Shown: positions 4,251-57,019, counted from the stretch's first letter. The stretch is 64,000 nucleotides of DNA from a virus (IMGVR_UViG_3300037067_004891:357674-421673), one strand, 5' to 3'. Program-made: numbers and translations. Notes: generated by a model not told the origin, from the sequence alone.

Positions 4251-6185
4251 ATGGCTCAATTATTAAAAGGTAAGCAGATTGCACAGCAAACCATAACTAT
4301 AAAAGGTGCAACTGGTAATGTTGTGGTTCAAGGTGACTTAGATATGTCCACATATAATGTGGTAATATCTGGAACACCTACTGCCAACAATCAAGCTGTT
4401 AATAAGGCTTATGTTGATGCAGTAGCACAAGGATTAATACCACATCCACCAGTAAAAGTTGTAGCACTTACAACCGTAGCATCATTAACAGGACTTACAA
4501 CAGTAGATGGATACTCTTTATCTGCTGATGATAGAGTTCTTTTAGTCAATCAAGGTGGAACAGGTGTTGGTGATTCTGATATTCAAAATGGTTTATGGTT
4601 AGCAAAAGCTGGCGCATGGTTAAGACCAACAGATGCAGATGGTACACCTGAAAACGAAGTTGCTTTAGGTGATTTTGTGTATGTTGAAACTGGTACTACT
4701 TATACATCATCAGGTTGGGTGTTAGCTGGTACTGATGGAAACTCAAATAATAATATTGAAGTTGGTATAGAAGCTCAACAATGGGTACAAGTTTCCGCAC
4801 CTGGACAATATGGTACAGATGGTGAAGGTATTGAACTCGTTGGAAACATATTTAATCTTGAATTAGATGGTTCAACTTTAAGTAAAACATCTTCTGGTAT
4901 AAGAGTTGCAGCATCAGTAATAACAGTTATTTCAAATAATCAAAGTAACACGACATCATTATCAACAGCTATTTCAAGTGAGCTTTCTACAAGAGGTACT
5001 GCGGACACATCATTATCAACAGCTATTTCTGGAAATACATCTGCTACAACATCATTATCAACAGCTATTTCAACAGAAGTGTCTACAAGAACATCTACTG
5101 ATTCAACTTTATCAACAGCTATTTCAACAGAAACTTCAACAAGAAATTCAGTTGATGTTTCATTATCAACTGCAATAAATAATAGTATTACTGGTTTAAC
5201 CAATGGCAATGGAACAACCGCAAACGGAACTGCTGTAAATTTTGGGGGAATATTATCTGATAATACCTATATAGATTTAAGTTCAAGCACAATGGAATTT
5301 TGGGGTGAATATGGGGAGATTGCAATGGGACGGGGTATATCAGAATCGGGTGATTATGATTATCTTGGGATCGATGGTCTTGGAATAAATGTAACAACTG
5401 AAAATGGACAAGGTATTAAATATGTAGCAGATTATTCTAAAACATTACTTGATAATTCATTAGTTAATAAAGGATTTGTGACAGGTTACACATCAGGTAT
5501 GACTTTAAATATATCTTCTTTATCAACAGCTATTTCAACTGAAGCTTCAACAAGAACTTCTACTGATTCAACCTTATCGACAACTATTTCAACTGAAGCA
5601 TCTACAAGAACATCTGCTGATACATCTTTAGCTACTGGTATTTCAACTACTGTTTCAACAGAAGCCTCTATAAGAGCATCAGCCGATACTTCGTTAAGTA
5701 CTGAAATTGCTGCTATTACTTCTGGTTCTACTGCTGGTGTTGATTCATTATCAACAGCATTATCGAATGAAATATCTACAAGAGGTACTGCTGACACATC
5801 ATTATCAACAACTATTTCAACTGAAGCATCTACAAGAACATCTGCTGATTCTTCATTAGCAACAGCAATCAGTAATATTCAAGCTCCAAGTTATTTCGAG
5901 CAGTTATTAACTCCAGCAATAAGTGGTTCTTCAACTGCTGTAAATATTGGTACTGCTTTTGCTCACGGTGTAACTGGTGGGGTAATTGATGAATCTACTG
6001 TTATAGTATTCTTTAACGGCATTGAATATACCTTCGAATATGTACAAGGTTCACCTGCTGTATTCCATACAAACGGTGTCACACCTACATCTGCTGGAAC
6101 TCCATTATATTTTGATGGTGTAGAAGCTGGTTTCGCAATCGAAACAACTGATGACGTTAAAATTAAATATGTAGTAACTACATAA
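4251..6185 (+). CDS. Ser/Thr-rich phage fibre protein with SLST coiled-coil repeats
   Basis: AVNKAYVD motif and a phage tail-type domain (VDGYSLSADDRVLLVNQ...QNGLW...W.RPTDAD...YVETGT), followed by ~18-aa STEASTRTSADTSLSTAI repeats. Confidence 0.75.
   Translation: MAQLLKGKQIAQQTITIKGATGNVVVQGDLDMSTYNVVISGTPTANNQAVNKAYVDAVAQGLIPHPPVKVVALTTVASLTGLTTVDGYSLSADDRVLLVNQGGTGVGDSDIQNGLWLAKAGAWLRPTDADGTPENEVALGDFVYVETGTTYTSSGWVLAGTDGNSNNNIEVGIEAQQWVQVSAPGQYGTDGEGIELVGNIFNLELDGSTLSKTSSGIRVAASVITVISNNQSNTTSLSTAISSELSTRGTADTSLSTAISGNTSATTSLSTAISTEVSTRTSTDSTLSTAISTETSTRNSVDVSLSTAINNSITGLTNGNGTTANGTAVNFGGILSDNTYIDLSSSTMEFWGEYGEIAMGRGISESGDYDYLGIDGLGINVTTENGQGIKYVADYSKTLLDNSLVNKGFVTGYTSGMTLNISSLSTAISTEASTRTSTDSTLSTTISTEASTRTSADTSLATGISTTVSTEASIRASADTSLSTEIAAITSGSTAGVDSLSTALSNEISTRGTADTSLSTTISTEASTRTSADSSLATAISNIQAPSYFEQLLTPAISGSSTAVNIGTAFAHGVTGGVIDESTVIVFFNGIEYTFEYVQGSPAVFHTNGVTPTSAGTPLYFDGVEAGFAIETTDDVKIKYVVTT
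4950..5875 (+). repeat. Intragenic ~54-bp repeats (tcattatcaacagctatttcaac...) in two blocks
   Basis: Repeated SLSTAISTExSTR units are visible in both DNA and protein. The same unit recurs at ~39360-39545. Confidence 0.85.
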
Positions 6186-12731: not shown

Positions 12732-13469
12732 ATGGATAACAAATTTATTATAATTATACCTGTATATAATGCTGAGATATATATTGAGAAATGTATGTTA
12801 TCTATTTTAAACCAAAATTATGATAATTTTGAAATCGGTGTGGTTGATGGTGGTTCAACGGACAACACATTTGAAATATTAAAAAAATTGAAAGAAAACT
12901 ATCAATTTGAACTTATTCAAAATGATGTGAATATTAGCTCACCATTATCCAATTATCTTTTGGGAGTAGATACATTTTCCAAGGATAAAGAAGATATATT
13001 GGTAACCGTAGATGGTGATGATTTTTTGGCACATAATGGCGTGTTATCACTTTTAAATGATGTCTATCAAGATGAAAATATATGGTTAACTTATGGTCAA
13101 TATGAACCTTTGAGTAGAACATATTTTAATTATTGCAGACCTATACCAGACACTCGAATTTATAGACGAAGTGGACAATGGTATGCTTCTCATCTTAGGA
13201 CTGTTAAGAAAAAACTATTAGATAAGGTAAAGAGAGAAGATATGATAAATGAAAATGGTATATATTATCGGTATGCATGTGACGCTGCTTATATGTTTCC
13301 TATTATAGAAATGTCTGGACAAAAACACATGAAATTCATAAAAGAAGTTTTGTATTATTACAATGATGTTACCCCGAACAATGCTATGAAAACTGATACT
13401 ATGATTTTATTAAAAACTGATAAAATCATTAGAGACAAACCAATTTACAATGAATTAACTGAATTATGA
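12732..13469 (+). CDS. Glycosyltransferase family 2
   Basis: IIIPVYNAEIYIEKC, VVDGGSTD, VDGDD. Confidence 0.85.
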   Translation: MDNKFIIIIPVYNAEIYIEKCMLSILNQNYDNFEIGVVDGGSTDNTFEILKKLKENYQFELIQNDVNISSPLSNYLLGVDTFSKDKEDILVTVDGDDFLAHNGVLSLLNDVYQDENIWLTYGQYEPLSRTYFNYCRPIPDTRIYRRSGQWYASHLRTVKKKLLDKVKREDMINENGIYYRYACDAAYMFPIIEMSGQKHMKFIKEVLYYYNDVTPNNAMKTDTMILLKTDKIIRDKPIYNELTEL

Positions 13470-22745: not shown

Positions 22746-23384
22746 ATGAATTTAAAAGACAATAAAGTTTTTGTACAGATTGGGACAAATAATGGCGATG
22801 ATGATTTTAATAAATTGGTGAAATTACATAGTCCGAGTAAAATTATATTAGTTGAACCCAATATTAGTTTAAATGAAAAAATACACAATTCATATGAAAA
22901 TGTTGAAAATGTTTTTTTAGAAAACGTTATAATTTCTAATTATAAAGATGAAAAAATCAAATTAGTAAAACCTAAAAATAATATAAATGGTAAATCCATC
23001 AATGGTATAAAATATGATGATGGTCATTATAGTTTATTACCATTAAACGATTGGGGAAATGTTTTTGATTATATTGAAACTGATACATTATCATTTATGT
23101 CTTTATGTGAAAAATACAATTTAACAGACATACATTTTTTACAAATTGACACTGAAGGATATGACTCTGAAATAATATTGTCCATTAATTTTAATAAAGT
23201 GAATATTGATATTATAAAATATGAAAAATGGTATTTTGATGAATCTTTTTATGAAAAGTATGGTGCGTTGTCAAAAAAGTATGGTGCTAATGGAATGAAT
23301 GAAGCAAAAAAATATTTAATTTCAAATGATTATACTTTTATAGATAATGAAAAAGATTTAGATCATGTTGTTATTAAAAAATAA
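22746..23384 (+). CDS. FkbM-family methyltransferase
   Basis: VQIGTNNG, LVEPN, LQIDTEGYD. Confidence 0.75.
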   Translation: MNLKDNKVFVQIGTNNGDDDFNKLVKLHSPSKIILVEPNISLNEKIHNSYENVENVFLENVIISNYKDEKIKLVKPKNNINGKSINGIKYDDGHYSLLPLNDWGNVFDYIETDTLSFMSLCEKYNLTDIHFLQIDTEGYDSEIILSINFNKVNIDIIKYEKWYFDESFYEKYGALSKKYGANGMNEAKKYLISNDYTFIDNEKDLDHVVIKK

Positions 23385-43228: not shown

Positions 43229-45496
43229 TTATATATTAATTTTAAGAAGTTTATTAATTAAATCAAACAATTCTATTTTATTTATAGGTTTAGATACATA
43301 TCCATTAAATCCCATATTTAAACAATCAACTTTATCATTTTTCATAGCATATGCAGTTTGAGCTATGATAATAGCATTTGGGTTTAAATCTCTTATCCTT
43401 TCTTTAGCTTCAATCCCATTCATAATTGGCATCTGTATATCCATTAATATAATATCTGGATTATATTTAACAAAATATTCTAATGCTAATTTACCATTTT
43501 CAGCGTGTATTAAATCACAACCTGTGTTTTTAATAATTTCATATAAATATTCATAATTGGTCTGCATATCTTCAACTATTAAAATTTTTTTTCCACGCCA
43601 ATCATAATCATTGATATCGAAAATAGGATCGTCCAACTGTTTGTAATCTATAACAGGATTAAATGGAACAGTAAAATAAAAAATAGTACCTTCTTTAGAT
43701 TTGGATTCTAACCATATATCACCGCCCATCATTTTAACCAAATTCAAACAAATATTTAAACCGAGTCCAGTTCCACCATATTTTCTGGTTTTACTTTCAT
43801 CAATCTGTCTAAATCTTTCAAAAATTAAATCTTTATATTTTTTATCAATACCAATACCAGTATCCTTTACAAAAAATTCTAATTTATCACCATTAATTAA
43901 AAAACCATATTCAATATACCCTTCTTCTGTGAATTTGATAGCGTTACTTATTAAATTTGATAAAACTTGTTTCACACGATATGGGTCAATATATGCTAAT
44001 AACTTTTTTGTTTTTGAACAACTTTCACAAATAAGATTTATATTTTTATTATTGAATTTAATTTTATTTTTATAAGTAGTATACAAATCTACCATAATAT
44101 TATCAATATAAAATTCAATTTCTTCTATTTTCAATTCATCAGCCTCTATTTTAGCAATGTCTATGATGTCATCGATCAATTTTAACAATTCATCACCACT
44201 TTCATTTACTATTTGAATATATTCAGCTTTCTCTTTTATTGTTATATTATCGTCTTTTAATAAATCAGAAAACCCAACTATAGCATTCATAGGTGTTCTG
44301 ATTTCATGAGATAAATTAGCTAAGAAAGCTGATTTTAATTTATCTGCTTTTTCTGCTTTTTCTTTCGCTTGTTCCAAATCGATAATATATTGTTTTCTAT
44401 CTGATATATCTCTTATTATTGTTAATAATCTGTCTTTACCATCATAATTAATTATTTTACCAGCCATTAAACCAGTTTTTTCTTCTCCATTTTTTAATAT
44501 AAATTCGACTTCATAATTATAATATTCTCCATTATTTTTTTTTAATATTTTTATCATTTCATCTCTTTTTTCAGGATGTTTCCAAATATTCAATTCATAA
44601 ATAGTTTTACCAATACATTCAGACCTATTCCATCCAGTGTTTTTTTCAAATGAATTATTAACTTCTAAATATTCAGATGTTTCTAAATCTGTGACAAGAA
44701 CAGAATCTGGAATAAACATAAATATTTTTGTAAATTTATCTTCACTCAATTTTATTATATTTTCCATTTCTCTACGAATAGTTGTATCTCTTGTAAAAAC
44801 GAAAACATATTCTTCATCATCAATTTTAAAGTAGTTTAAAGAAGCTTCCATTGGAAAGTTTTCACTGTTTTTAGTAAGATGAAAATGTTCCAATGTTATA
44901 TTTTTTTTCTTTTTTAAAATATTAAAATATTCTTTCCATAAACTTCGATATTCTTTTGGTACAAGTTCGTACCAAGATTTTTTTTTATTTATTTCACCTT
45001 CACCATAACCTAACATTTCATGATAAGAAATATTACAATATGTTATATCGCCATTTAAACTTAACCACATCATTCCTTCTTTGGTATTTTCTATTGAAAA
45101 TTCCTTCATCTTTAAAACTTTTTCAAGTTCTTTTTTATTAGTTATGTCTTCTTTAACAGCAACATATTTTAATATATTACCTTCATCATCTTTAAAAGAT
45201 GATATGGAAGCGGATTCCCAATAGAATGTTCCATCTTTTCTTTTATTATGAAATTCACCTTTCCACTCTTTACCTAATGATATAGTTTCCCATAATTGTT
45301 TATAAAATTCGTTTGTTTGTAAGCCAGATTTTAATATACTTGGTTTTTGACCCAAAACTTCTTTCTTAGAGTAACCAGATACTTCTATGAATTTGTTGTT
45401 TACAAATTCTACAACACCATTTTTATCTGTTATAATAATACTGGCAGGTGAACATTCAACAGCTTTCAATAAAATTTCGGTGTTTATAATAGACAT
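43229..45496 (-). CDS. Hybrid sensor histidine kinase (3 PAS + HisKA + HATPase + receiver)
   Basis: PAS/PAC segments, FLANLSHEIRTPMN H-box, NLISNAIKFT, VKDTGIGI, GGTGLGL, ILIVED...ILMDIQMP...KP. Confidence 0.95.
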   Translation of the reverse strand: MSIINTEILLKAVECSPASIIITDKNGVVEFVNNKFIEVSGYSKKEVLGQKPSILKSGLQTNEFYKQLWETISLGKEWKGEFHNKRKDGTFYWESASISSFKDDEGNILKYVAVKEDITNKKELEKVLKMKEFSIENTKEGMMWLSLNGDITYCNISYHEMLGYGEGEINKKKSWYELVPKEYRSLWKEYFNILKKKKNITLEHFHLTKNSENFPMEASLNYFKIDDEEYVFVFTRDTTIRREMENIIKLSEDKFTKIFMFIPDSVLVTDLETSEYLEVNNSFEKNTGWNRSECIGKTIYELNIWKHPEKRDEMIKILKKNNGEYYNYEVEFILKNGEEKTGLMAGKIINYDGKDRLLTIIRDISDRKQYIIDLEQAKEKAEKADKLKSAFLANLSHEIRTPMNAIVGFSDLLKDDNITIKEKAEYIQIVNESGDELLKLIDDIIDIAKIEADELKIEEIEFYIDNIMVDLYTTYKNKIKFNNKNINLICESCSKTKKLLAYIDPYRVKQVLSNLISNAIKFTEEGYIEYGFLINGDKLEFFVKDTGIGIDKKYKDLIFERFRQIDESKTRKYGGTGLGLNICLNLVKMMGGDIWLESKSKEGTIFYFTVPFNPVIDYKQLDDPIFDINDYDWRGKKILIVEDMQTNYEYLYEIIKNTGCDLIHAENGKLALEYFVKYNPDIILMDIQMPIMNGIEAKERIRDLNPNAIIIAQTAYAMKNDKVDCLNMGFNGYVSKPINKIELFDLINKLLKINI

Positions 45497-46209: not shown

Positions 46210-46510
46210 GTTGTGTCAACCCTCATTTTTGTATGTTCACTCACCTCACGAATGCAAAAATCCAAAAGTCCAACATGTTGTGTCAACCCTCATTTTTGTA
46301 TGTTCACTCACCTAAATTATGGACGTACATAAATGGCTTCCCGTTGTGTCAACCCTCATTTTTGTATGTTCACTCACCAATGAAAGAACTTACAAAAACA
46401 ACGGTATCTGTTGTGTCAACCCTCATTTTTGTATGTTCACTCACCAGTCCGTTGGCAGAAACATTTTGAAAATCGTTGTGTCAACCCTCATTTTTGTATG
46501 TTCACTCACC
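46210..46510. CRISPR. CRISPR-like array 1: 5 identical 36-bp repeats, 4 spacers (31, 30, 31, 29 bp)
   Basis: Repeat GTTGTGTCAACCCTCATTTTTGTATGTTCACTCACC at 46210, 46277, 46343, 46410 and 46475, with unique spacers. No cas genes recognised in the window. Confidence 0.95.
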
Positions 46511-46788
46511 ATACCACCCACTAATTCATTAGCATTCAATCTGTTAAGATGATATTTCGTTTCTAAAACTTGATAAATTTTATAATAATCATAATATAAA
46601 GTGTGATTTTTTAAATTGTAGTTAAAATAAACTATATTATCTTTTTTCCCAATTAAAAATTGGGAATTATACTTAAAAATATACTTAGAATCAACCCACT
46701 CAGTATCTTTAATTATTTGCCATAAAAAATACTTCGGGCTTCTGGCTTCCTGTATCTTTCGAATTATATCTGATATATCTTCTTCCAT
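46441..46788 (-). CDS. Array-fused small protein A; C-terminus encoded by the first repeat plus first spacer
   Basis: Near-identical paralog at 52580..52903. Reads ...GGMVSEHTKMRVDTT-IFKMFLPTDW*. Start MEEDI chosen by paralogy. Confidence 0.8.
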   Translation of the reverse strand: MEEDISDIIRKIQEARSPKYFLWQIIKDTEWVDSKYIFKYNSQFLIGKKDNIVYFNYNLKNHTLYYDYYKIYQVLETKYHLNRLNANELVGGMVSEHTKMRVDTTIFKMFLPTDW

Positions 46789-46828
46789 TTTTAATTTTAA
46801 AAATCGAAAAATATCCATATTAATTTTT

Positions 46829-47980
46829 TTAAATTGAATAAAAATTTTTTCTTATTTGTTGTAAGACATACTTGGAAAATTTTTCATCTATATCATCTTT
46901 CAAAGTGGATGTTTTATAGACAGCTTCTATTTCTAAAATTTTATCATCAGAATCTTTTATAATATCATCATATTCCCTATTACCATGCTTTATATCTAAT
47001 AATAACTCTCTGTCTGGTCGTTTAACAATTACCCCCTTCCCTTGTCCAATTTCAAGACACATTGTTAATAATCTTGTTAGATGTAAAAGATTTTTTGAGT
47101 CATAGTTCTTACCATGTTTCATATTGGTATCATAACGAACTGGATTTCTTTTTGCAACCCACGACCAATATTCAGAGTAGTCCTTACAATAAGATGTGTA
47201 ACCATCTTTATTATAAGAAAAAATACATTTTGGTGTTTCAGTTTCTCTTACAGAACTGTACCTTAATTCATTTGATACAAGTTCACCCGCTTCGTTTTCT
47301 TTTACAATTCCTTTATATCCTTTAAATGAATCTTTAAATTTTTTAAATGCTTCAAGTCCATCTTTTTCTTCTATACTATCATCAAAACAAGCATGTGAAA
47401 ATTCATCATAGAATAACGAAAAAACGTCTCTTGCGTTAGGGACATTAACTATACCACAAAACTTTTGATTAAGCCCATTCTTGCTTAAAAAGCGTTTTAA
47501 TGGGTATGTTTTGTAACCATCAATAACAAAACAAAATTCCAGTGGACTCTTTTTTTCTTTAGCAACTGGTTTAACAATTTTTTTATTTAAACCTCTGGCT
47601 TTTTTTATTTGTTGTTCGGCATATTTACCAAAAGTTTCTTTTAGTTTTTTGGAAATATATTTTTCTTTATTTTCTAATAAAATATCAAAACATTCGTGTT
47701 TAATTCGAATTTTTTCTTCTGGAGAAAATAATAATTCGACTGCTGTCGGATTTGATTTATTAAGAAGTTCGATGAAACGTCCAATTTCGAAATAAGTTAT
47801 ATCATTTTTTTCATCAGATACCTCAGTAATATAATCATCAGACAATACATCATCTAAAGGAAGTACAAATACTCCTTTATAATCAATATCTGAATTAGCT
47901 TCATTTAATCCATAAGCATGAGAGCCTGTGAGAGCTTCAAATATGATTAGATTTTTATCTTTAAGGTCTTGTATTGTCAT
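46829..47980 (-). CDS. RlaP/YcgL-like DNA polymerase beta-superfamily nucleotidyltransferase
   Basis: GSHAYGL...SDIDYKGVF, L.KSNPT.VELL, YDSKN..H..RLL. Confidence 0.8.
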   Translation of the reverse strand: MTIQDLKDKNLIIFEALTGSHAYGLNEANSDIDYKGVFVLPLDDVLSDDYITEVSDEKNDITYFEIGRFIELLNKSNPTAVELLFSPEEKIRIKHECFDILLENKEKYISKKLKETFGKYAEQQIKKARGLNKKIVKPVAKEKKSPLEFCFVIDGYKTYPLKRFLSKNGLNQKFCGIVNVPNARDVFSLFYDEFSHACFDDSIEEKDGLEAFKKFKDSFKGYKGIVKENEAGELVSNELRYSSVRETETPKCIFSYNKDGYTSYCKDYSEYWSWVAKRNPVRYDTNMKHGKNYDSKNLLHLTRLLTMCLEIGQGKGVIVKRPDRELLLDIKHGNREYDDIIKDSDDKILEIEAVYKTSTLKDDIDEKFSKYVLQQIRKNFYSI

Positions 47981-48041
47981 ATATTAAATTTTAAACAAAA
48001 CTAATAAATATTAATATATAAAAAAAATTATAAAATATATT

Positions 48042-49283
48042 TTGTTATTAAAAGATTTTCCTAAATTATTTTCTCAATTACATTCTACTAAAAATGGAAA
48101 TATAGATACAAATAACGTATCTTATAAAAGTGGATTGAAAGTCTGGTGGGTGTGTGATAAAGGTCATGAATGGCAAGCTAAAATATTCAGTAGAATGGAT
48201 GGTAATAATTGTCCATATTGTTCTGGTAAATTTTTTTCAGAAAAAAATTCTTTTGTATACAATTACCCTGAATTAATAAAAGAATGGGATTATAATAAGA
48301 ATATAAACGTGGATATTCACAAAATAAAATATTCGAGTAAGTTAAAAGTTTGGTGGAAATGTAAATATGGTCATGAGTGGGAAGCTAAAATATTAAATAG
48401 AACTATAAATAAAAGTGGATGTCCGTATTGTTCTGGAAGTCTTTTAACAGAAAAAAATTCTCTTGTATATAATTACCCTGAATTAATAAAAGAATGGATT
48501 TTTAATAAAAACACGAAATTTGATATCAATAAAATCACATATGGAAATAAAACTAAAGTTTGGTGGAAATGTAAAAATGGACACGAATGGGAAGCTTCTA
48601 TATTAAATAGAACTACTAAAAATAGCCAATGTCCAAACTGCAATTTTAATAATACTTCACAGATTGAAATAAGATTATATTGTGAGTTAAAATGTATTTT
48701 TTCTGATATTTATAATAGAAAAAAAATAAATAATATTGAAGTTGATATATTTATACCACTAATAAACCTTTTAATAGAATATGATGGTAGTTATTGGCAC
48801 AAAAATAAAGAAGATGTAGATTTAAAAAAGAACGAAATATTAAAAGAAAATAATTATAATATAATAAGAATTCGAGAATACCCATTATGTGTATTAAATA
48901 ATAATGATATTATATACATCCCTAAAAATAAGTTTTTAAATACAATTAAAGAATTACTTATTTTAATTAATAGTAAATATGTAATACCTGATTTATATAA
49001 AAAAAGAATATATGAATACTTAAAAACAGATTCATATTTAAACCCTGTCGAATATAATGATATTATCAATAATTTAATTATGCCTATAAAAACAAATTTA
49101 TCAATTGTATATCCCAATATTAATAAAGATTGGAATGAATATAAAAACGGTTTGTTAAAATTAGATATGTTCTCTAAAGGGAGTCATAGAAAAGTTTGGT
49201 GGAAGTGTGAAAATGGACATGAATATGAAAGAACAATTAAAAATAAATTTAAATATAATAACTGTCCAATTTGTAAAAGGTGA
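48042..49283 (+). CDS. Zinc-ribbon repeat (DUF4379-like) protein with PD-(D/E)XK/DUF559-like nuclease domain, a probable homing endonuclease
   Basis: Four KVWWxC..GHE(W/Y)...CP.C repeats; EVDIFIP....IEYDGSYWH. Opposite strand to its neighbours. Confidence 0.75.
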   Translation: MLLKDFPKLFSQLHSTKNGNIDTNNVSYKSGLKVWWVCDKGHEWQAKIFSRMDGNNCPYCSGKFFSEKNSFVYNYPELIKEWDYNKNINVDIHKIKYSSKLKVWWKCKYGHEWEAKILNRTINKSGCPYCSGSLLTEKNSLVYNYPELIKEWIFNKNTKFDINKITYGNKTKVWWKCKNGHEWEASILNRTTKNSQCPNCNFNNTSQIEIRLYCELKCIFSDIYNRKKINNIEVDIFIPLINLLIEYDGSYWHKNKEDVDLKKNEILKENNYNIIRIREYPLCVLNNNDIIYIPKNKFLNTIKELLILINSKYVIPDLYKKRIYEYLKTDSYLNPVEYNDIINNLIMPIKTNLSIVYPNINKDWNEYKNGLLKLDMFSKGSHRKVWWKCENGHEYERTIKNKFKYNNCPICKR

Positions 49284-49286
49284 ATA

Positions 49287-49508
49287 TTATTTTTCTTTTT
49301 TAGATACAGTTATTTTTAATGTTGTATAATCATAACCAGCATTGGTCAGCATGGTTTTCAAATTTTCTTCCCAATCTACACGATGTCCAGTAGTTTTCAT
49401 CATTTCGAAGAACACGCCCATCAAAAATTTACCACTGTTGTCAGGATAATCGAAAACCCAATCGTTCTCCCGTTTACTCCATTTGAGTTTTATAACTGGT
49501 TTTCCCAT
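49287..49508 (-). CDS. Hypothetical protein
   Basis: ORF in a minus-strand run. Confidence 0.45.
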   Translation of the reverse strand: MGKPVIKLKWSKRENDWVFDYPDNSGKFLMGVFFEMMKTTGHRVDWEENLKTMLTNAGYDYTTLKITVSKKEK

Positions 49509-49831
49509 AATGATTCTATTTTTAATTTTCTGATTTCTTCTTTTGTTTTGTAAACATGTATATCAACAGGACATTTGACCTTTTCATCTTCTGAATATGC
49601 CCACTCATATACATCTTTATTAAAATCTGAATGATTTACATCAATATGTCCTAAAATCTGATGTGTGTTTTTTAATTCAATCGGGTGACAATCTGCCATT
49701 GCCCAGTGTTTTTGTGCTAATTCTCGCATAGATAAGCCATTTGTTCTAAACACACCAACATAACTATTCCAGTTATATCTAACTGCAACTATATGTCCAA
49801 TTTCCATTTCTTTGTTAAATATATCTTTCAT
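49490..49831 (-). CDS. Hypothetical protein
   Basis: MKDIFNKEMEIGHIV start; IRKLKIESL C-terminal motif. Confidence 0.5.
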   Translation of the reverse strand: MKDIFNKEMEIGHIVAVRYNWNSYVGVFRTNGLSMRELAQKHWAMADCHPIELKNTHQILGHIDVNHSDFNKDVYEWAYSEDEKVKCPVDIHVYKTKEEIRKLKIESLWENQL

Positions 49832-49835
49832 ATAA

Positions 49836-50237
49836 TTAAAATTTACAAATAGTTCTAATGTGATCGGCAGCATCATAAAACCCGAATTTATTGGCAATTT
49901 GCCATAAATCTTTCATTTGGTCAATCATCGAATCCTGACGTTGAGGGCATTGTTCTACTTTTTTTAATTCGGTTTCCCAATCGGTAATAGAAATAACATC
50001 AATGGTGTTTTCGACAATTCTAATTTCTCTTTTCGATAATTCACTTAAAATGATATCCTGTTCAGTTATTTCATCAAATAATATCGAATCATTTTTAATC
50101 ATATCATTATAAAGAGTTTCATCAAATATTAGAACTGTTTTGGACATATTTTCAACCATCGAATAATATATTATAGTATCACCTATGATATAATTTAAAA
50201 TTTTTTCGTTTTTATCGACTAATACAAAATATTCCAT
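49836..50237 (-). CDS. Hypothetical protein
   Basis: ORF in the run; C-terminal QRQDS..DQ..DL...ANKFG.YDAAD. Confidence 0.5.
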   Translation of the reverse strand: MEYFVLVDKNEKILNYIIGDTIIYYSMVENMSKTVLIFDETLYNDMIKNDSILFDEITEQDIILSELSKREIRIVENTIDVISITDWETELKKVEQCPQRQDSMIDQMKDLWQIANKFGFYDAADHIRTICKF

Positions 50238-50521
50238 AATAATTAAATATTAAATGCAACTTCTTTTAATTTATCAAAATTGAATTTTTCATAACTATGC
50301 CAGTTATCTAAATCCGAAAATCTATGGTCATCTTTATCAGCAACAAAATATATGATGGCATCTTCGGTGATATCAGCTTTCAATTCTTCAATAGTATCAT
50401 ATTGTCTTTTGAATGAACCAGCTTCCCTATCTAAAAAGGATAACCATCGGATTTTCTCCGATACCGTGATAATATGCTACTGTGAATTTTTTTGTGGCCA
50501 TATAAAAAAATTAGGGTGAAT

Positions 50522-50863
50522 TTAAAGAAAGTATACCGCACTATTACCTTCAAAATCTAAATCAGTATCCAATACATAGGTATCGCTATTGTGTTGTCCT
50601 GTAAGTTTTGAATATTCATCAACTTCCTCGTTTATTAATAAATCAGCTGTTTTTATTTTGATATATTCTTTTGTGCTTTCGGATACCACATCGTTTTAAA
50701 ACAAAAGATAACACGGTGTTGATAACTCATTGATTATATTGCACAATATTTCTTTATCTGTTGGCAATGTTTCCGTATATCTATAAGCGTTTAATAATGT
50801 TTTTAAAACACCTAAGAAACAACTACCAAAATCATTATCACCAAATTGAATTGCTATTTTCAT
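50522..50863 (-). pseudogene. Hypothetical gene with one in-frame TAA (50696-50698)
   Basis: Manual translation MKIAIQFGDNDF...CYLLF*NDVVSE...AVYFL* stays in one frame. Confidence 0.5.
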
Positions 50864-50885
50864 AATATTTTAAAATAAATGAACC

Positions 50886-51011
50886 CTAACAATATATGTA
50901 GCAAATTAGGGGTGTCGTCGTTCCAACTTGTTGCATTCGCACTCTTTATTTAGTTCTGCAAGTTGATAGGTTAGTGCGTTCTATCCTCCAACTTGCCATA
51001 TAAAAAAGTTA
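50886..51011. repeat. Imperfect palindrome bounded by TAAC...GTTA (attC-like)
   Basis: taacaatatatgtagcaaattagggg pairs imperfectly with cctccaacttgccatataaaaaagtta. Inner caacttg/caagttg and cgcact/agtgcg pairs; locally GC-richer. Confidence 0.5.
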
Positions 51012-51014
51012 ATA

Positions 51015-51218
51015 TTATTCTTCGTCACAGAATTCAAGTGATTTTTGTACTTTATCAATTGAATCAAATATTTCACCACCTTGTTTGTGGTTTAATGGAA
51101 AATACTGCCATCCACCTTCAACTGGTTTAATAGTCCCAACACGTTTTCCATTTAATTTAACAGGTATCGAAGTGTTTCTATCACCTATTTTACCTTCTGT
51201 GTATAAATATTCTATCAT
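51015..51218 (-). CDS. Hypothetical protein
   Basis: Short ORF, VKLNGKRVGTIKPVEGGWQYFP. Confidence 0.5.
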   Translation of the reverse strand: MIEYLYTEGKIGDRNTSIPVKLNGKRVGTIKPVEGGWQYFPLNHKQGGEIFDSIDKVQKSLEFCDEE

Positions 51219-51222
51219 ATTT

Positions 51223-51552
51223 TTAAAAATTTAAATCGTAATATCTATCAATAGCTTCTTTTGATTGTAAAATAGATACAGTTAAGAACCCTTCATGTAA
51301 TCCACCTTTACCAAACCATTTCAATTTAGGAACTTCCCAGTAACCTTCAGCTCCACATGGAACGTTAGCGTTACGTTTAATTTCTAAACCACGATAATGA
51401 ATAGTACGATTGAAATTTTTAAGTTCAGTCCTTCTATCACCTTCATGTTTATCGAAAGGGTCATTCGAGACTGAGTGGCTAATTTCTATCGGTTGTGTTA
51501 AATCAAGTTCAAACATATGCTGTATAATTTTATACAACAAATATAATAACAA
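51223..51552 (-). CDS. Hypothetical protein
   Basis: ORF; the real start is probably the internal MFELD. Confidence 0.45.
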   Translation of the reverse strand: MLLYLLYKIIQHMFELDLTQPIEISHSVSNDPFDKHEGDRRTELKNFNRTIHYRGLEIKRNANVPCGAEGYWEVPKLKWFGKGGLHEGFLTVSILQSKEAIDRYYDLNF

Positions 51553-51585
51553 TAAAATAAAGAAAAAAATCGTAGAAAAAATATT

Positions 51586-51963
51586 TTAATAATCTATATC
51601 AGATAATTTTCTTGGGTGTTTACCTAAAAAATAAGTATACTTAGATGAATTTATTTCACCTAAAATTAGTTTATCCATTACATATCTGTCATAACCATTT
51701 GGTAAATAATGTTCAGATACATCAAATATATTTCTCTTTTTATAATGAAACCTATAATGTATAACAAACCCAAATGGTGACCACTGCTCAATAAAAAAAT
51801 ATGGTGATTCATCAACATTTGATATTAATTGTGAAATTATATCTTTTACTTTTATTAATTCATCATCACCAAATTCTGATTGGTTAGCTTGTTCTAAACT
51901 ATTATTTTTTAAAGATAATTGTTGTATAAGTCTTAGTTCTTTTAGTTTGTCTATGTCGTCCAT
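51586..51963 (-). CDS. Hypothetical protein
   Basis: ORF just beyond the distal end of array 2. Confidence 0.45.
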   Translation of the reverse strand: MDDIDKLKELRLIQQLSLKNNSLEQANQSEFGDDELIKVKDIISQLISNVDESPYFFIEQWSPFGFVIHYRFHYKKRNIFDVSEHYLPNGYDRYVMDKLILGEINSSKYTYFLGKHPRKLSDIDY

Positions 51964-52008
51964 TTATTTTACTTAATAGATTTTGTAAATGTTGATAATT
52001 CTGACTCA

Positions 52009-52637
52009 ATTGTGTCCACCCTCAATTTGAAATGTTCACTCACCTATATTGAAGGATTTGACCAATTTTATCGATGTTGTGTCAACCTCATTTTTGTATG
52101 TTCGAACACCACAATAAATCACTGAACTATAACATGTTGCGTTGTGTCAACCCTCATTTTTGTATGTTCGATCACCACAGAAACAACGAATACTTATTGC
52201 CCGCGGTTGTGTCAACCCTCATTTTTGTATGTTCGATCACCTAAAAAAATATGGCATGTTTCATAAACTTGGTTGTGTCAACCCTCATTTTTGTATGTTC
52301 GATCACCTAACGGCAAGAAGCCAACGAACAAAGACAGTTGTGTCAACTCTCATTTTTGTATGTTCGATCACCAAGCAATCTCATGCTCTCAGCCTTTGAT
52401 ATGTTGTGTCAACCCTCATTTTTGTATGTTCGATCACCTCACAAACGGGTTGCTTGTGAGAGGCTTTGTTGTGTCAACCCTCATTTTTGTATGTTCGATC
52501 ACCAGATTATTATGTTTTATGCTGGTGAAATTGGTTGTGTCAACCCTCATTTTTGTATGTTCGATCACCTCTCGGGTATTCAACATACCAGAGAAAAGGT
52601 TGTTGTGTCAACCCTCATTTTTGTATGTTCGATCACC
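52009..52637. CRISPR. CRISPR-like array 2: 10 repeats, 9 spacers (29-32 bp)
   Basis: Consensus GTTGTGTCAACCCTCATTTTTGTATGTTCGATCACC at 52141, 52206, 52272, 52337 (1 mismatch), 52403, 52468, 52534 and 52602. Degenerate copies at 52076 (35 bp) and 52009. Confidence 0.95.
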
Positions 52638-52903
52638 ATACCCTTAATCAATTCATTAATAGTTAGATCATTAAGATGATATTTCGTTTCTAAAACTTGA
52701 TAAATTTTATAATAATCATAATATAAAGTGTGATTTTTTAAATTGTAGTTAAAATAAACTATATTATCTTTTTTCCCAATTAAAAATTGGGAATTATACT
52801 TAAAATCAAACCACTCAGTGTCTTTAATTATTTGCCACAAAAAATATTTGGGACTACGAGCTTCTTGTATCTTTTTTATTATGTCTAAAATATCATTTTC
52901 CAT
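52580..52903 (-). CDS. Array-fused small protein B; C-terminus encoded by the first repeat plus first spacer
   Basis: Paralog of 46441..46788. Reads ...KGMVIEHTKMRVDTT-TFSLVC*. Confidence 0.8.
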   Translation of the reverse strand: MENDILDIIKKIQEARSPKYFLWQIIKDTEWFDFKYNSQFLIGKKDNIVYFNYNLKNHTLYYDYYKIYQVLETKYHLNDLTINELIKGMVIEHTKMRVDTTTFSLVC

Positions 52904-52905
52904 GA

Positions 52906-53301
52906 TTATATACCCAGATGTTTCTTACTATTTTCAATATACTTTTCGATATTAACTGAACCAACCGTATTAGATGAATGAATAAGACAATTTGGTAATT
53001 TTAATTTATTATCCATACAATAATCAACAAGCCATTTAATACAATCATATCCAGTTCTCTCTTTTATTTCGCCATCTTCGATTATGAAATCCGATATATC
53101 GTGGTCAAAACTGATGTTAATAGGTAATTTATCTTCGGTTATTTTATACACAAATTCATCAAAAGATTTAACAATAATCCAGTTTTTATCAATATAAACA
53201 GGATTACCAGTCACATTATAAACCATCTGAATAGTTCGGTAATCATCGAGTATTAGATTATAATCCATGTTCTGACAGTCTATTTTTGAATTTATCTTCA
53301 A
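52906..53301 (-). CDS. Cyclic-phosphate-processing receiver-like (cREC) protein
   Basis: LILDDYR, W.IVKSFDEF, ISFDHD, TGYD..KWL, IHS.N.VG. Confidence 0.65.
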   Translation of the reverse strand: MKINSKIDCQNMDYNLILDDYRTIQMVYNVTGNPVYIDKNWIIVKSFDEFVYKITEDKLPINISFDHDISDFIIEDGEIKERTGYDCIKWLVDYCMDNKLKLPNCLIHSSNTVGSVNIEKYIENSKKHLGI

Positions 53302-56087: not shown

Positions 56088-56621
56088 TTATGTTTTAAAG
56101 GTTTTACATGCGTATGAACCAGAATTCAATTCCAGTTTTTTATTTAAAAATCCATAATATTTATACGTTTCCGTTTCAATGAAAACCAAATCTTCATTAT
56201 ATGATTTTATCCAATCAAAATATTTTGAATTAAAATTAGAATATATATATGTTTCACAAAGATATGAAGTGTCTTCATAAAATGAAGTGATATAATTTGA
56301 TTTTTTTTCTATTCCAAATAAATCTAAATTATTATAATATTTTTTTTGACATTTACAGAAATAGTTCATTAAATCCCTGTGTAGTATAATATGAGATTTT
56401 TCAACAATAAACCCATCTTTTGTAACTGTCATATAATCTTCTGGTAAACTGAGATTTTTTAAAATAATCTTACCTATAACATTTTTATAATATTTATCAG
56501 TTGACATGTTATTATCATTATATAACACTTTCTCGTTTGTAGAAAGTATTTTATATAAATCATTTATAAAATCCAAAGACTGGTCAATCGTCTGATAGTT
56601 CCGAGTTATATAGTATTCCAT
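56088..56621 (-). CDS. Hypothetical protein
   Basis: ORF only. Confidence 0.4.
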   Translation of the reverse strand: MEYYITRNYQTIDQSLDFINDLYKILSTNEKVLYNDNNMSTDKYYKNVIGKIILKNLSLPEDYMTVTKDGFIVEKSHIILHRDLMNYFCKCQKKYYNNLDLFGIEKKSNYITSFYEDTSYLCETYIYSNFNSKYFDWIKSYNEDLVFIETETYKYYGFLNKKLELNSGSYACKTFKT

Positions 56622-57019
56622 AATAACTCCTTTCTTTCTTGTATCTTCCTATCATAATTTTTTAGGGGTATTACTGCCTTATCATCCATTAGAGGATATT
56701 CCCCAAGTGTAAATTCGGGTGAATTCAATCCTATTTTATAATCTTTAATTGATAAAAATCTTTTTCTCTCATTCTCAATGTTCTTTGCTGTATTATAATC
56801 CCTATCATGATTATTACCACACATATTCTTCTTTGTTTTTAATTCAGTAAGATGTTTACTCAAATCTTTTAAACCAACGTTAAGTTTATCATTATTATAT
56901 TTATCAATTTTAAAAGCAAGACAGTTATTATAAATAAATCTACAAGAACCCAATAGTTTAGCTATATAGATTTTTTGTTCTGTGTTTGGATAAATTCTTA
57001 TTTTAATTGCTTTTAACAT
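56606..57019 (-). pseudogene. tnpB: Internally deleted TnpB (IS605 OrfB)
   Basis: The N-terminal HTH (KAIKIRIYPN.EQ...LLGSCRFIYN) is joined directly to the C-terminal CG..HDRDYN.A.NI; the RuvC core is missing. Confidence 0.85.

Follow-up and report, generated by a model that had tools for sequence, protein, structure and literature searches.

A small protein-coding gene in the leader position of CRISPR arrays in a landfill jumbo phage and its relatives

The DNA analyzed here is a stretch of 64,000 nucleotides (the window) from the IMG/VR virus record IMGVR_UViG_3300037067_004891 (positions 357674-421673). The source record (G000) is a single contig of 421,673 bp with a GC content of 25.7%, and the window is its last 64 kb. 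At two loci in the window a small protein-coding gene runs directly into a CRISPR array, and the last 12 codons of the gene are the first repeat of that array. Coordinates without a prefix are those of the window, counted from its first letter. The features of the two loci are as follows.

46441-46788, minus strand: small-protein gene, copy G, with the conserved start MEED at 46788; its first repeat is the codons for VSEHTKMRVDTT and its tail, IFKMFLPTDW, comes from spacer 1.
46210-46510, minus strand: array 1, five identical 36-nt repeats with spacers of 29-31 nt, given in the sense of the gene.
46475-46510, 46410-46445, 46343-46378, 46277-46312 and 46210-46245, minus strand: the repeats of array 1.
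46446-46474, minus strand: spacer 1 of array 1 (the newest position), a 29/29 match to G000:338395-338423.
52580-52903, minus strand: small-protein gene, copy H; its first repeat is the codons for VIEHTKMRVDTT.
52009-52637, minus strand: array 2, ten repeats.

An earlier note on this DNA, made from the sequence alone, had both open reading frames (ORFs) running in frame into a 36-bp repeat. The coordinates, the peptide and the tails IFKMFLPTDW and TFSLVC were all confirmed. Both ORFs read ...GM-V[S/I]EHTKMRVDTT in frame with no stop codon before the repeat, so the note was also right that no non-coding leader lies between gene and array. The stop codon of copy G is the TGA at the beginning of repeat 2. 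The tail of copy H (TFSLVC) and its stop codon both lie within spacer 1. The longest reading of copy G begins at an ATG at 46818, upstream of the MEED start, and the other copies do not have that ATG. The two proteins, called near-identical in the note, are 84-88% identical. The eight gene-proximal repeats of array 2 carry ATC (Ile), the same codon as the gene itself, and one of them has 1 mismatch. Repeat 9 (52076-52110) has a 1-nt deletion and is 35 nt long. Repeat 10 (52009-52044) is of a variant type that is used by another array in G000. The window total is 15 repeats of 36 nt (one of 35 nt) with a period of 65-68 nt and spacers of 29-32 nt. With 15 copies of a 36-mer at this period the arrays are not a product of chance.

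The small gene is a real protein-coding gene of ~100 aa. The median ratio of nonsynonymous to synonymous substitution rates (dN/dS) was 0.29 at a dS of ~0.8, and the 13 distinct copies that were aligned contained zero frame-breaking indels. Homology among the module copies begins exactly at the ATG of the small gene, which in most copies is within a few bases of the stop codon of the preceding gene. No common promoter motif was found upstream of the copies and a Bacteroidota -7 box was present in only 2/7.

An AlphaFold model based on 85 homologs had a predicted local distance difference test (pLDDT) score of 95 and a predicted template modeling (pTM) score of 0.82. The predicted fold is alpha/beta and repeat-encoded residues 90-101 complete its last helix with a score of ~97. 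The structure prediction suggested in the earlier note therefore places the repeat-encoded residues inside the protein fold. A first model, based on 19 close sequences with the tail included, had a pLDDT of 70 and a disordered end, with residues 94-107 below 50. No family match to the small protein was found in Pfam, PHROGs or PADLOC, and a sequence profile search of the PDB gave nothing below E = 0.07. Foldseek and VIA-align were run with two models and found no resembling solved structure (best Z 4.1-4.3; 4.1 with the pLDDT-95 model). Winged-helix-like rows obtained with the first, poorer model were absent with the pLDDT-95 model. The ESM Atlas returned viral hypothetical proteins only, with a template modeling (TM) score of about 0.5. 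The small protein is not strongly basic.

G000 was compared to three relatives, G001 (675,678 bp), G002 (639,979 bp, complete with terminal repeats) and G003. The module, described in the note as present twice, was found by tblastn as seven full small-gene copies and one truncated copy in G000, and six of the seven full copies carry arrays. G002 has ~13 copies and 11 arrays (about 11/13 copies with an array). Two copies are present in G001 and one in G003. Logan contigs of four DNA runs, from landfill and groundwater metagenomes, end at the arrays. The landfill jumbo phage of 421,673 bp with six CRISPR arrays in PMC12607003 (Virol J 2025) is the same genome with the same arrays. That paper already remarks that the arrays do not adjoin cas genes, and it places related landfill megaphages of >600 kb among the "Mahaphages". 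The sections examined make no mention of an ORF-repeat fusion, a gene family, a leader, a trans-activating CRISPR RNA (tracrRNA), a protospacer adjacent motif (PAM) or self-targeting spacers. A Type IX secretion CHU_C domain is encoded in G000. This domain, together with the Mahaphage placement of the related megaphages in PMC12607003, points to Bacteroidota hosts. Completeness estimates for G000 conflict (CheckV 59% in the IMG/VR record compared to >95% in PMC12607003). The contig has no terminal repeat and begins within tRNA-like sequence.

The ending ...MVSEHxKxxVDTT followed by a variable tail was present in all full-length copies in G000, G002 and G003, in one of the two copies in G001 and in 17/17 close database homologs. 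A profile search of 1.84 billion representatives gave 232 clusters at E <= 0.001. Homologs of 25-40% identity have the same fusion, each with its own diverged repeat. The C-terminal peptide recurs in frame at exactly 22 aa (66 nt) in 20/150 family representatives, in which two or more repeats are read through. This recurrence indicates that distant proteins read through repeat units too. As read-through requires a stop-free 30-nt spacer, 20/150 is approximately the number expected if a large share of the family carries arrays. In the DNA of three contigs with distant members, 36+30 arrays begin inside the ORF. The same was found at 7/8 further IMG/VR loci, where the array has a period of 65-66. 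These loci are on contigs of 9-108 kb with ordinary phage neighbors, and no large Cas-like gene was found within 10 kb of them. The domain is nearly always at the C-terminus; over 149 proteins the median length of the tail was 14 aa. Three array-less paralogs (the G000 copy at 23267, L046 and L062) retain a homologous V-x-E-x-F C-terminal segment. The proposal in the note that gene and array form one duplicated module, with coding sequence as leader and first repeat, was borne out by every G000 copy, by the 17 close homologs and by distant homologs. The module is conserved in many other uncultured phages.

Among P0022, P0092, P0025 and P0045 are family members with 3-5 tandem domain copies in one protein of 346-760 aa, and one member with the domain at the C-terminus of a SET-domain protein. 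At a distant member (L108:75-577) one array ends right before the start of the gene and a second begins at its 3' end. This layout indicates that modules can be arranged head to tail.

Relatives of the small protein were absent from the GTDB bacterial and archaeal species representatives. A tblastn search of GenBank phage records (INPHARED), published Mahaphages and Lak phages included, gave no protein match. A blastn search with the whole region gave short weak matches only and none to the spacers. A 26-base degenerate repeat pattern had 0 matches in 185,579 GTDB species representatives, a search which a host repeat of less than ~85% identity would escape. In IMG/VR and the JGI metagenomes the pattern was found in these phages only, with the small gene upstream wherever the contig reaches far enough.

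The arrays are genuine CRISPR arrays, working at least for acquisition. They have direct repeats with unique spacers, polarity and a PAM-like motif. CRISPR arrays are by definition made up of a non-coding leader and repeats; here a selected ORF stands in place of the non-coding AT-rich leader, and cas1 and cas2 are missing from the genome. In the arrays examined, variant or degenerate repeats are at the gene-distal end. The Ser-to-Ile change of the gene's own repeat is present in eight array 2 repeats, and G003 has four Ile-type repeats followed by one of an older type. In Cas1-Cas2 integration the first repeat templates new repeats. Because mutations of the coding repeat recur in the gene-proximal repeats, with variants placed distally, the first repeat is taken to template the newer ones. 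One small-gene array in G002 (C1:~4380-4644, minus strand) holds the same 30-nt spacer twice running (spacers 3 and 4).

The arrays examined contained 89 unique spacers. About a dozen of these (~10-15%) match this phage or its sister phages, and position 1 has more of the matched spacers than expected (Fisher p = 0.049). Five are self matches, several of them in the newest position: three perfect ones in G000 (46446-46474 and two in other arrays) and two in G002 (30/30 and 29/30). The protospacer of 46446-46474, at G000:338395-338423, is within a 785-aa gene and has the 3' flank TAAAAC. Sister megaphages from the same landfill samples were matched at 28/30, 27/31 and 27/30. A 3' N-AAA in gene sense was present at 5/6 perfect or near-perfect protospacers (binomial p = 6e-6). 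No motif was found in the 5' flanks of the best six protospacers.

The terminal repeats are degenerate in their 3' part and the 5' part is kept. In either orientation the repeat folded no better than shuffled sequence. The repeat is not significantly complementary to the mRNA of its gene or to the antisense, and Rfam gave nothing around the arrays but a sub-threshold HEARO match. The repeat starts with GGTGAGTGA in this clade, which places a TGA in both other frames; distant members do not have this. A stop codon was present in the ORF-continuing frame of 32/89 spacers, compared to 34 and 40 in the other frames. As stops are not depleted in the ORF-continuing frame, the content of the tail looks unselected.

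The unit size of 36/30 nt, the unstructured repeat and a PAM on the 3' side, away from the leader, give the arrays a type II geometry. Profiles of Cas1 and Cas2 (PF01867 and PF09827) gave no match in G000-G003, and control genomes were matched. Two effector loci were found in these genomes.

G002:C1:284450-288972 (L106): type II-C-like locus with an 11-repeat array, a 1131-aa Cas9 and then a tracrRNA with a terminator hairpin; no cas1/cas2.
G000:C1:190600-192900 (L007:4600-6900): Cas12f-like RuvC nuclease of 423 aa (PF07282 1.6e-15; PDB Cas12f 1e-32 to 1e-36).

Cas9 was not found in the 421,673 bp of G000, which may be incomplete, by TIGR01865 or by tblastn with the G002 Cas9. Effectors are given for G000 in PMC12607003 as speculative only, and include a 'Cas9' that was not recovered by either search. 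Among G000-G003, Cas9 and tracrRNA are present in G002 only. The G002 Cas9 scores 293 bits to TIGR01865 and its nearest solved structure is the Neisseria meningitidis (Nme) Cas9 (2e-23). G002 alone was found as a source of its relatives in IMG/VR. A second phage Cas9 (60% identical) is encoded on a phage-like contig of 14 kb, which has a similar repeat and lacks the small gene. Small-gene fragments are present at G002:282813-282934, about 1.7-2 kb from the tracrRNA-cas9 locus. None of the 11 spacers of the G002 Cas9-linked array is self-matching. Pairing of the G002 tracrRNA is at -30 kcal/mol with the repeat of its own locus and at only ~-10 kcal/mol with the small-gene repeats. No other anti-repeats of 13 nt or longer were found in G000 or in the complete G002. 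The small-gene repeats align to the two phage Cas9-locus repeats at 16-21/36 in the same orientation (z about 3-5), with scores of 3-11 compared to a shuffled mean of -5.5 (sd 3.4), and are barely similar in reverse orientation. This modest similarity suggests that the small-gene repeats and the phage Cas9-locus repeats may be related.

The Cas12f-like gene is followed after ~217 nt by its own six-repeat array of a different 36-nt repeat. Just upstream of the Cas12f-like gene is the truncated copy of the small gene, joined to a 3' half-repeat of the small-gene type. A full TnpB (432 aa) and an HNH gene precede both of these in G000. A Cas12f-like ortholog is present in G001 and absent from G002. 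Eight large proteins of no assigned function in G000 were scanned and none was Cas-like (the 850-aa and 966-aa proteins in Pfam only). For a 1301-aa protein encoded near one array no family was matched; its synteny is conserved in a related phage. The claim of the earlier note that no cas gene is present held for cas1, cas2 and cas9 over the whole record, though not for the Cas12f-like nuclease elsewhere in G000, and within the 64 kb itself a TnpB-like N-terminal fragment lies at 56606-57019. The term "cas-less" is likewise too strong for a system whose lineage has effectors elsewhere (Cas12f-like in G000, Cas9 and tracrRNA in G002). A canonical cas operon using the small-gene repeat, which the note had named as evidence against its proposal, was not found in the GTDB species representatives or the JGI metagenomes.

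The nearest known arrays are those of type II-C (Nme-type Cas9), as at the G002 locus. Shared features are unstructured 36-nt repeats, 30-nt spacers, a 3' PAM, a 3'-degenerate terminal repeat and the repeat similarity of 16-21/36 in the same orientation. The small-gene arrays differ in having a protein-coding leader and a translated first repeat. They also have no matching tracrRNA, no adjacent cas9 and no phage cas1/cas2, and they contain perfect self matches. Viral orphan mini-arrays, solitary repeat units (SRUs) and RNA anti-CRISPRs (Racr) are likewise short, cas-less, viral, multicopy and tied to Cas machinery in trans (PMC10651486). The repeat of those elements is a non-coding copy of a known host repeat, whereas the small-gene repeat is coding and its 26-base pattern was matched in no GTDB species representative. 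The SRU search pipeline masks ORFs ahead of the repeat search (PMC10651486, methods) and would for this reason miss the small-gene class. As in neo-CRISPR, an array grows from non-canonical sequence and local sequence becomes the repeat; here, in contrast, conservation of the structure extends over a protein family, and natural phages have it in multiple copies. In TnpB/IscB the scaffold of the guide RNA (omega-RNA) overlaps the 3' end of the nuclease ORF. A coding 3' end that doubles as the DNA of a guide-RNA scaffold is thus common to both, but in TnpB/IscB the guide is single, an array and spacer acquisition are lacking, and the nuclease itself is the encoded protein. The arrays of this phage have been published, and viral arrays of the orphan kind are known; the literature searched gave no description of a conserved leader that codes for a protein and has the first repeat as its C-terminus.

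Each locus is, with high confidence, one copy of a multicopy phage module in which the gene takes the place of the leader and its last 12 codons are the leader-proximal repeat. Gene and array would be co-transcribed, probably mostly as the tail of the upstream operon. Translation would pass repeat 1 and stop in spacer 1 or, in the other frames, at the TGA from GGTGAGTGA. New spacers would be inserted between the codons for ...G-M and the repeat. Each insertion would duplicate the coding repeat, so that the folded C-terminus is kept and only a short tail is altered. As cas1/cas2 are missing from this phage and from two near-complete relatives, the integrase has to work in trans, and array extension in trans by an integrase of the Cas1-Cas2 type is rather probable. 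It may be supplied by the type II adaptation machinery of the host, which would excise spacers from DNA in the infected cell. The arrays seem uncoupled from interference, because they hold perfect PAM-flanked self matches that persist in the consensus genomes, and no repeat-matching tracrRNA exists. They may take up those spacers as phage-borne integration targets, and a sink or decoy is tentatively suggested as the selected function. The earlier note had listed a decoy for host Cas9 or Cas13 among its possible roles; a decoy of the Cas9 class is compatible with the data and is the leading functional guess, and nothing points to Cas13. Taken as a whole, the reading of a coding-leader array that is extended in trans, uncoupled from interference and probably a spacer sink is a possibility falling somewhat short of an even chance.

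Several points weigh against this reading. Decoy mimicry is unproven, as the searches gave neither a host array nor a cas operon whose repeat is similar. G000 may be incomplete, and the missing part could hold a cas module. Matches to the phage itself or to sister phages account for only ~10-15% of the spacers, the GC content of the spacers is 31% compared to 25.7% for the genome, and four spacer cores of the window arrays had no exact 22-mer match in IMG/VR. The terminal repeats keep their 5' part, like those of functional type II arrays. A sink also leaves unexplained why a folded protein stays in the leader position across deep divergence. A bolder and doubtful possibility is that the small protein is a dedicated array factor, a new cas-like family in a widespread and so far unrecognized class of phage CRISPR module, that would run or subvert acquisition without cas1-cas2.

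The arrays could alternatively be working guide stores, with a Cas9 in trans (that of the host or of the sister-phage type) attacking competing related phages. The self matches would then be harmless because some protection, such as base modification or compartmentation, covers the DNA of the phage itself. Several spacers do match sister megaphages from the same landfill samples, the terminal repeats retain the 5' part needed for a type II CRISPR RNA, and the sister phage has a Cas9 and tracrRNA with a modestly similar repeat. Precedents are also available: CRISPR arrays occur in huge phages, and virus-borne mini-arrays targeting relatives were reportedly described by Medvedeva in 2019. Such use is nevertheless rather unlikely given that the complete G002 has no cognate tracrRNA and the one it has pairs weakly with the small-gene repeats, that a cas-linked array with the small-gene repeat is absent from all collections searched, that no Cas9 homolog is present in the 422 kb of G000, and that PAM-flanked perfect self matches occupy the newest positions here while the Cas9-linked array has none. 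A second alternative needs no selected function at all. The gene family would be unrelated to CRISPR and its 3' end would only by chance resemble a type II leader-repeat junction, and the arrays would be a by-product of ectopic Cas1-Cas2 growth of the neo-CRISPR kind, tolerated because only a short tail changes. The homologous C-terminal coding segment of the array-less paralogs and the unselected content of the tail agree with this, and adaptation during infection would be expected to yield self-derived spacers. In 2018 Nivala reportedly saw arrays form spontaneously at non-canonical sites in laboratory E. coli, where this is said to be rare and sporadic. Sporadic accidents would not yield an association that holds over 25-40% identity with lineage-own repeats, and arrays are present on 6/7 full copies in G000 and ~11/13 in G002, which makes a by-product improbable.

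The remaining alternatives concern the protein, the strand and the tail. The earlier note had listed a compact effector or accessory that binds or processes guides among its possible roles. That the small protein is a dedicated CRISPR factor, cas-like or anti-CRISPR-like, which recruits an integrase by binding leader-repeat DNA or its own transcript, processes guides or modulates Cas9, would fit the strict and ancient linkage of gene and array and the repeat-encoded residues within a confident predicted fold. The nearly constant C-terminal position of the domain and the gene relics beside the Cas12f-like gene in G000 and near the tracrRNA-cas9 locus in G002 are in keeping with it as well. It is judged quite improbable as the protein matches nothing in Pfam, PHROGs, PADLOC or the PDB by sequence or fold (best Z 4.1), is not strongly basic and has array-less paralogs. 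On the opposite strand the arrays could be read as type V-F arrays serving the Cas12f-like nuclease, with the A-rich 3' flank becoming a 5' TTTN PAM. A T-rich 5' PAM is typical of type V. G000 and G001 encode the Cas12f-like protein, a truncated module abuts its gene in G000, and the Cas12f-linked repeat resembles the small-gene repeat equally in both orientations. This geometry requires the leader at the gene-distal end, whereas by their polarity the arrays are newest next to the gene. A Cas12f-like gene is absent from G002 despite its 11 arrays of this kind, self matches are tolerated and no anti-repeat of >=13 nt was found, leaving type V-F very unlikely. The earlier note had further proposed that spacers diversify the C-terminal tail. 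Every acquisition does rewrite the tail, swapping 3-12 aa, but diversification as the selected function is extremely unlikely: stops are not depleted in the ORF-continuing frame (32/89 compared to 34 and 40), and the tails are unconserved and look unselected, with residues 94-107 below a pLDDT of 50 in the first model. The reading of a coding-leader array extended in trans and probably serving as a spacer sink is preferred.

Other features of the window are as follows.

46829-47980, minus strand: RlaP-type nucleotidyltransferase, upstream of copy G; it ends 10 nt before the ATG at 46818.
52906-53301, minus strand: cREC_REC-domain protein, upstream of copy H; its stop codon is 2 nt before the small-gene ATG.
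12841-12871, plus strand: partial protospacer (27/31) of the last spacer of the array at G000:180864, with the 3' flank TGAAAT.

The RlaP-type nucleotidyltransferase and cREC_REC (cyclic-phosphate processing receiver) families are both linked to RNA repair. This neighborhood may be a coincidence, since other copies follow unrelated genes (a DnaJ-domain protein and adenylosuccinate synthetase). Between the two modules a 413-aa protein (48042-49283, plus strand) contains four DUF4379 treble-clef zinc-ribbon units, with a tandem duplication of 210 bp inside the gene at 78% identity, and also a weak DUF559/Vsr-like endonuclease domain. A 755-aa ORF (43229-45496, minus strand) is by eye a candidate hybrid sensor kinase, with sensor-type segments repeated at the N-terminus, a core like that of a histidine kinase and a C-terminus resembling a receiver. 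The TnpB-like fragment at 56606-57019 (minus strand) is a 137-aa ORF, apparently a truncated TnpB, and at the N-terminus (MLKAIKIRIYPN...) it is similar to the full TnpB at G000:188680.

In these phages a structured protein C-terminus and the first repeat of a CRISPR array are the same 36 nucleotides, and this is kept across a family of at least 232 sequence clusters from uncultured phages. The class exposes a blind spot, as repeat-search pipelines that mask ORFs cannot see it. It raises the question of how the specificity of an integrase, and possibly of an RNA, coexists with a folding constraint on one sequence. It also raises the questions of who inserts spacers without cas1-cas2 and why perfect self-targeting spacers are harmless. 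Should the small protein turn out to be an array factor, it would add a new accessory to the Cas9-class systems. If the arrays are sinks, they would represent a new anti-CRISPR strategy, aimed at adaptation and not at interference.

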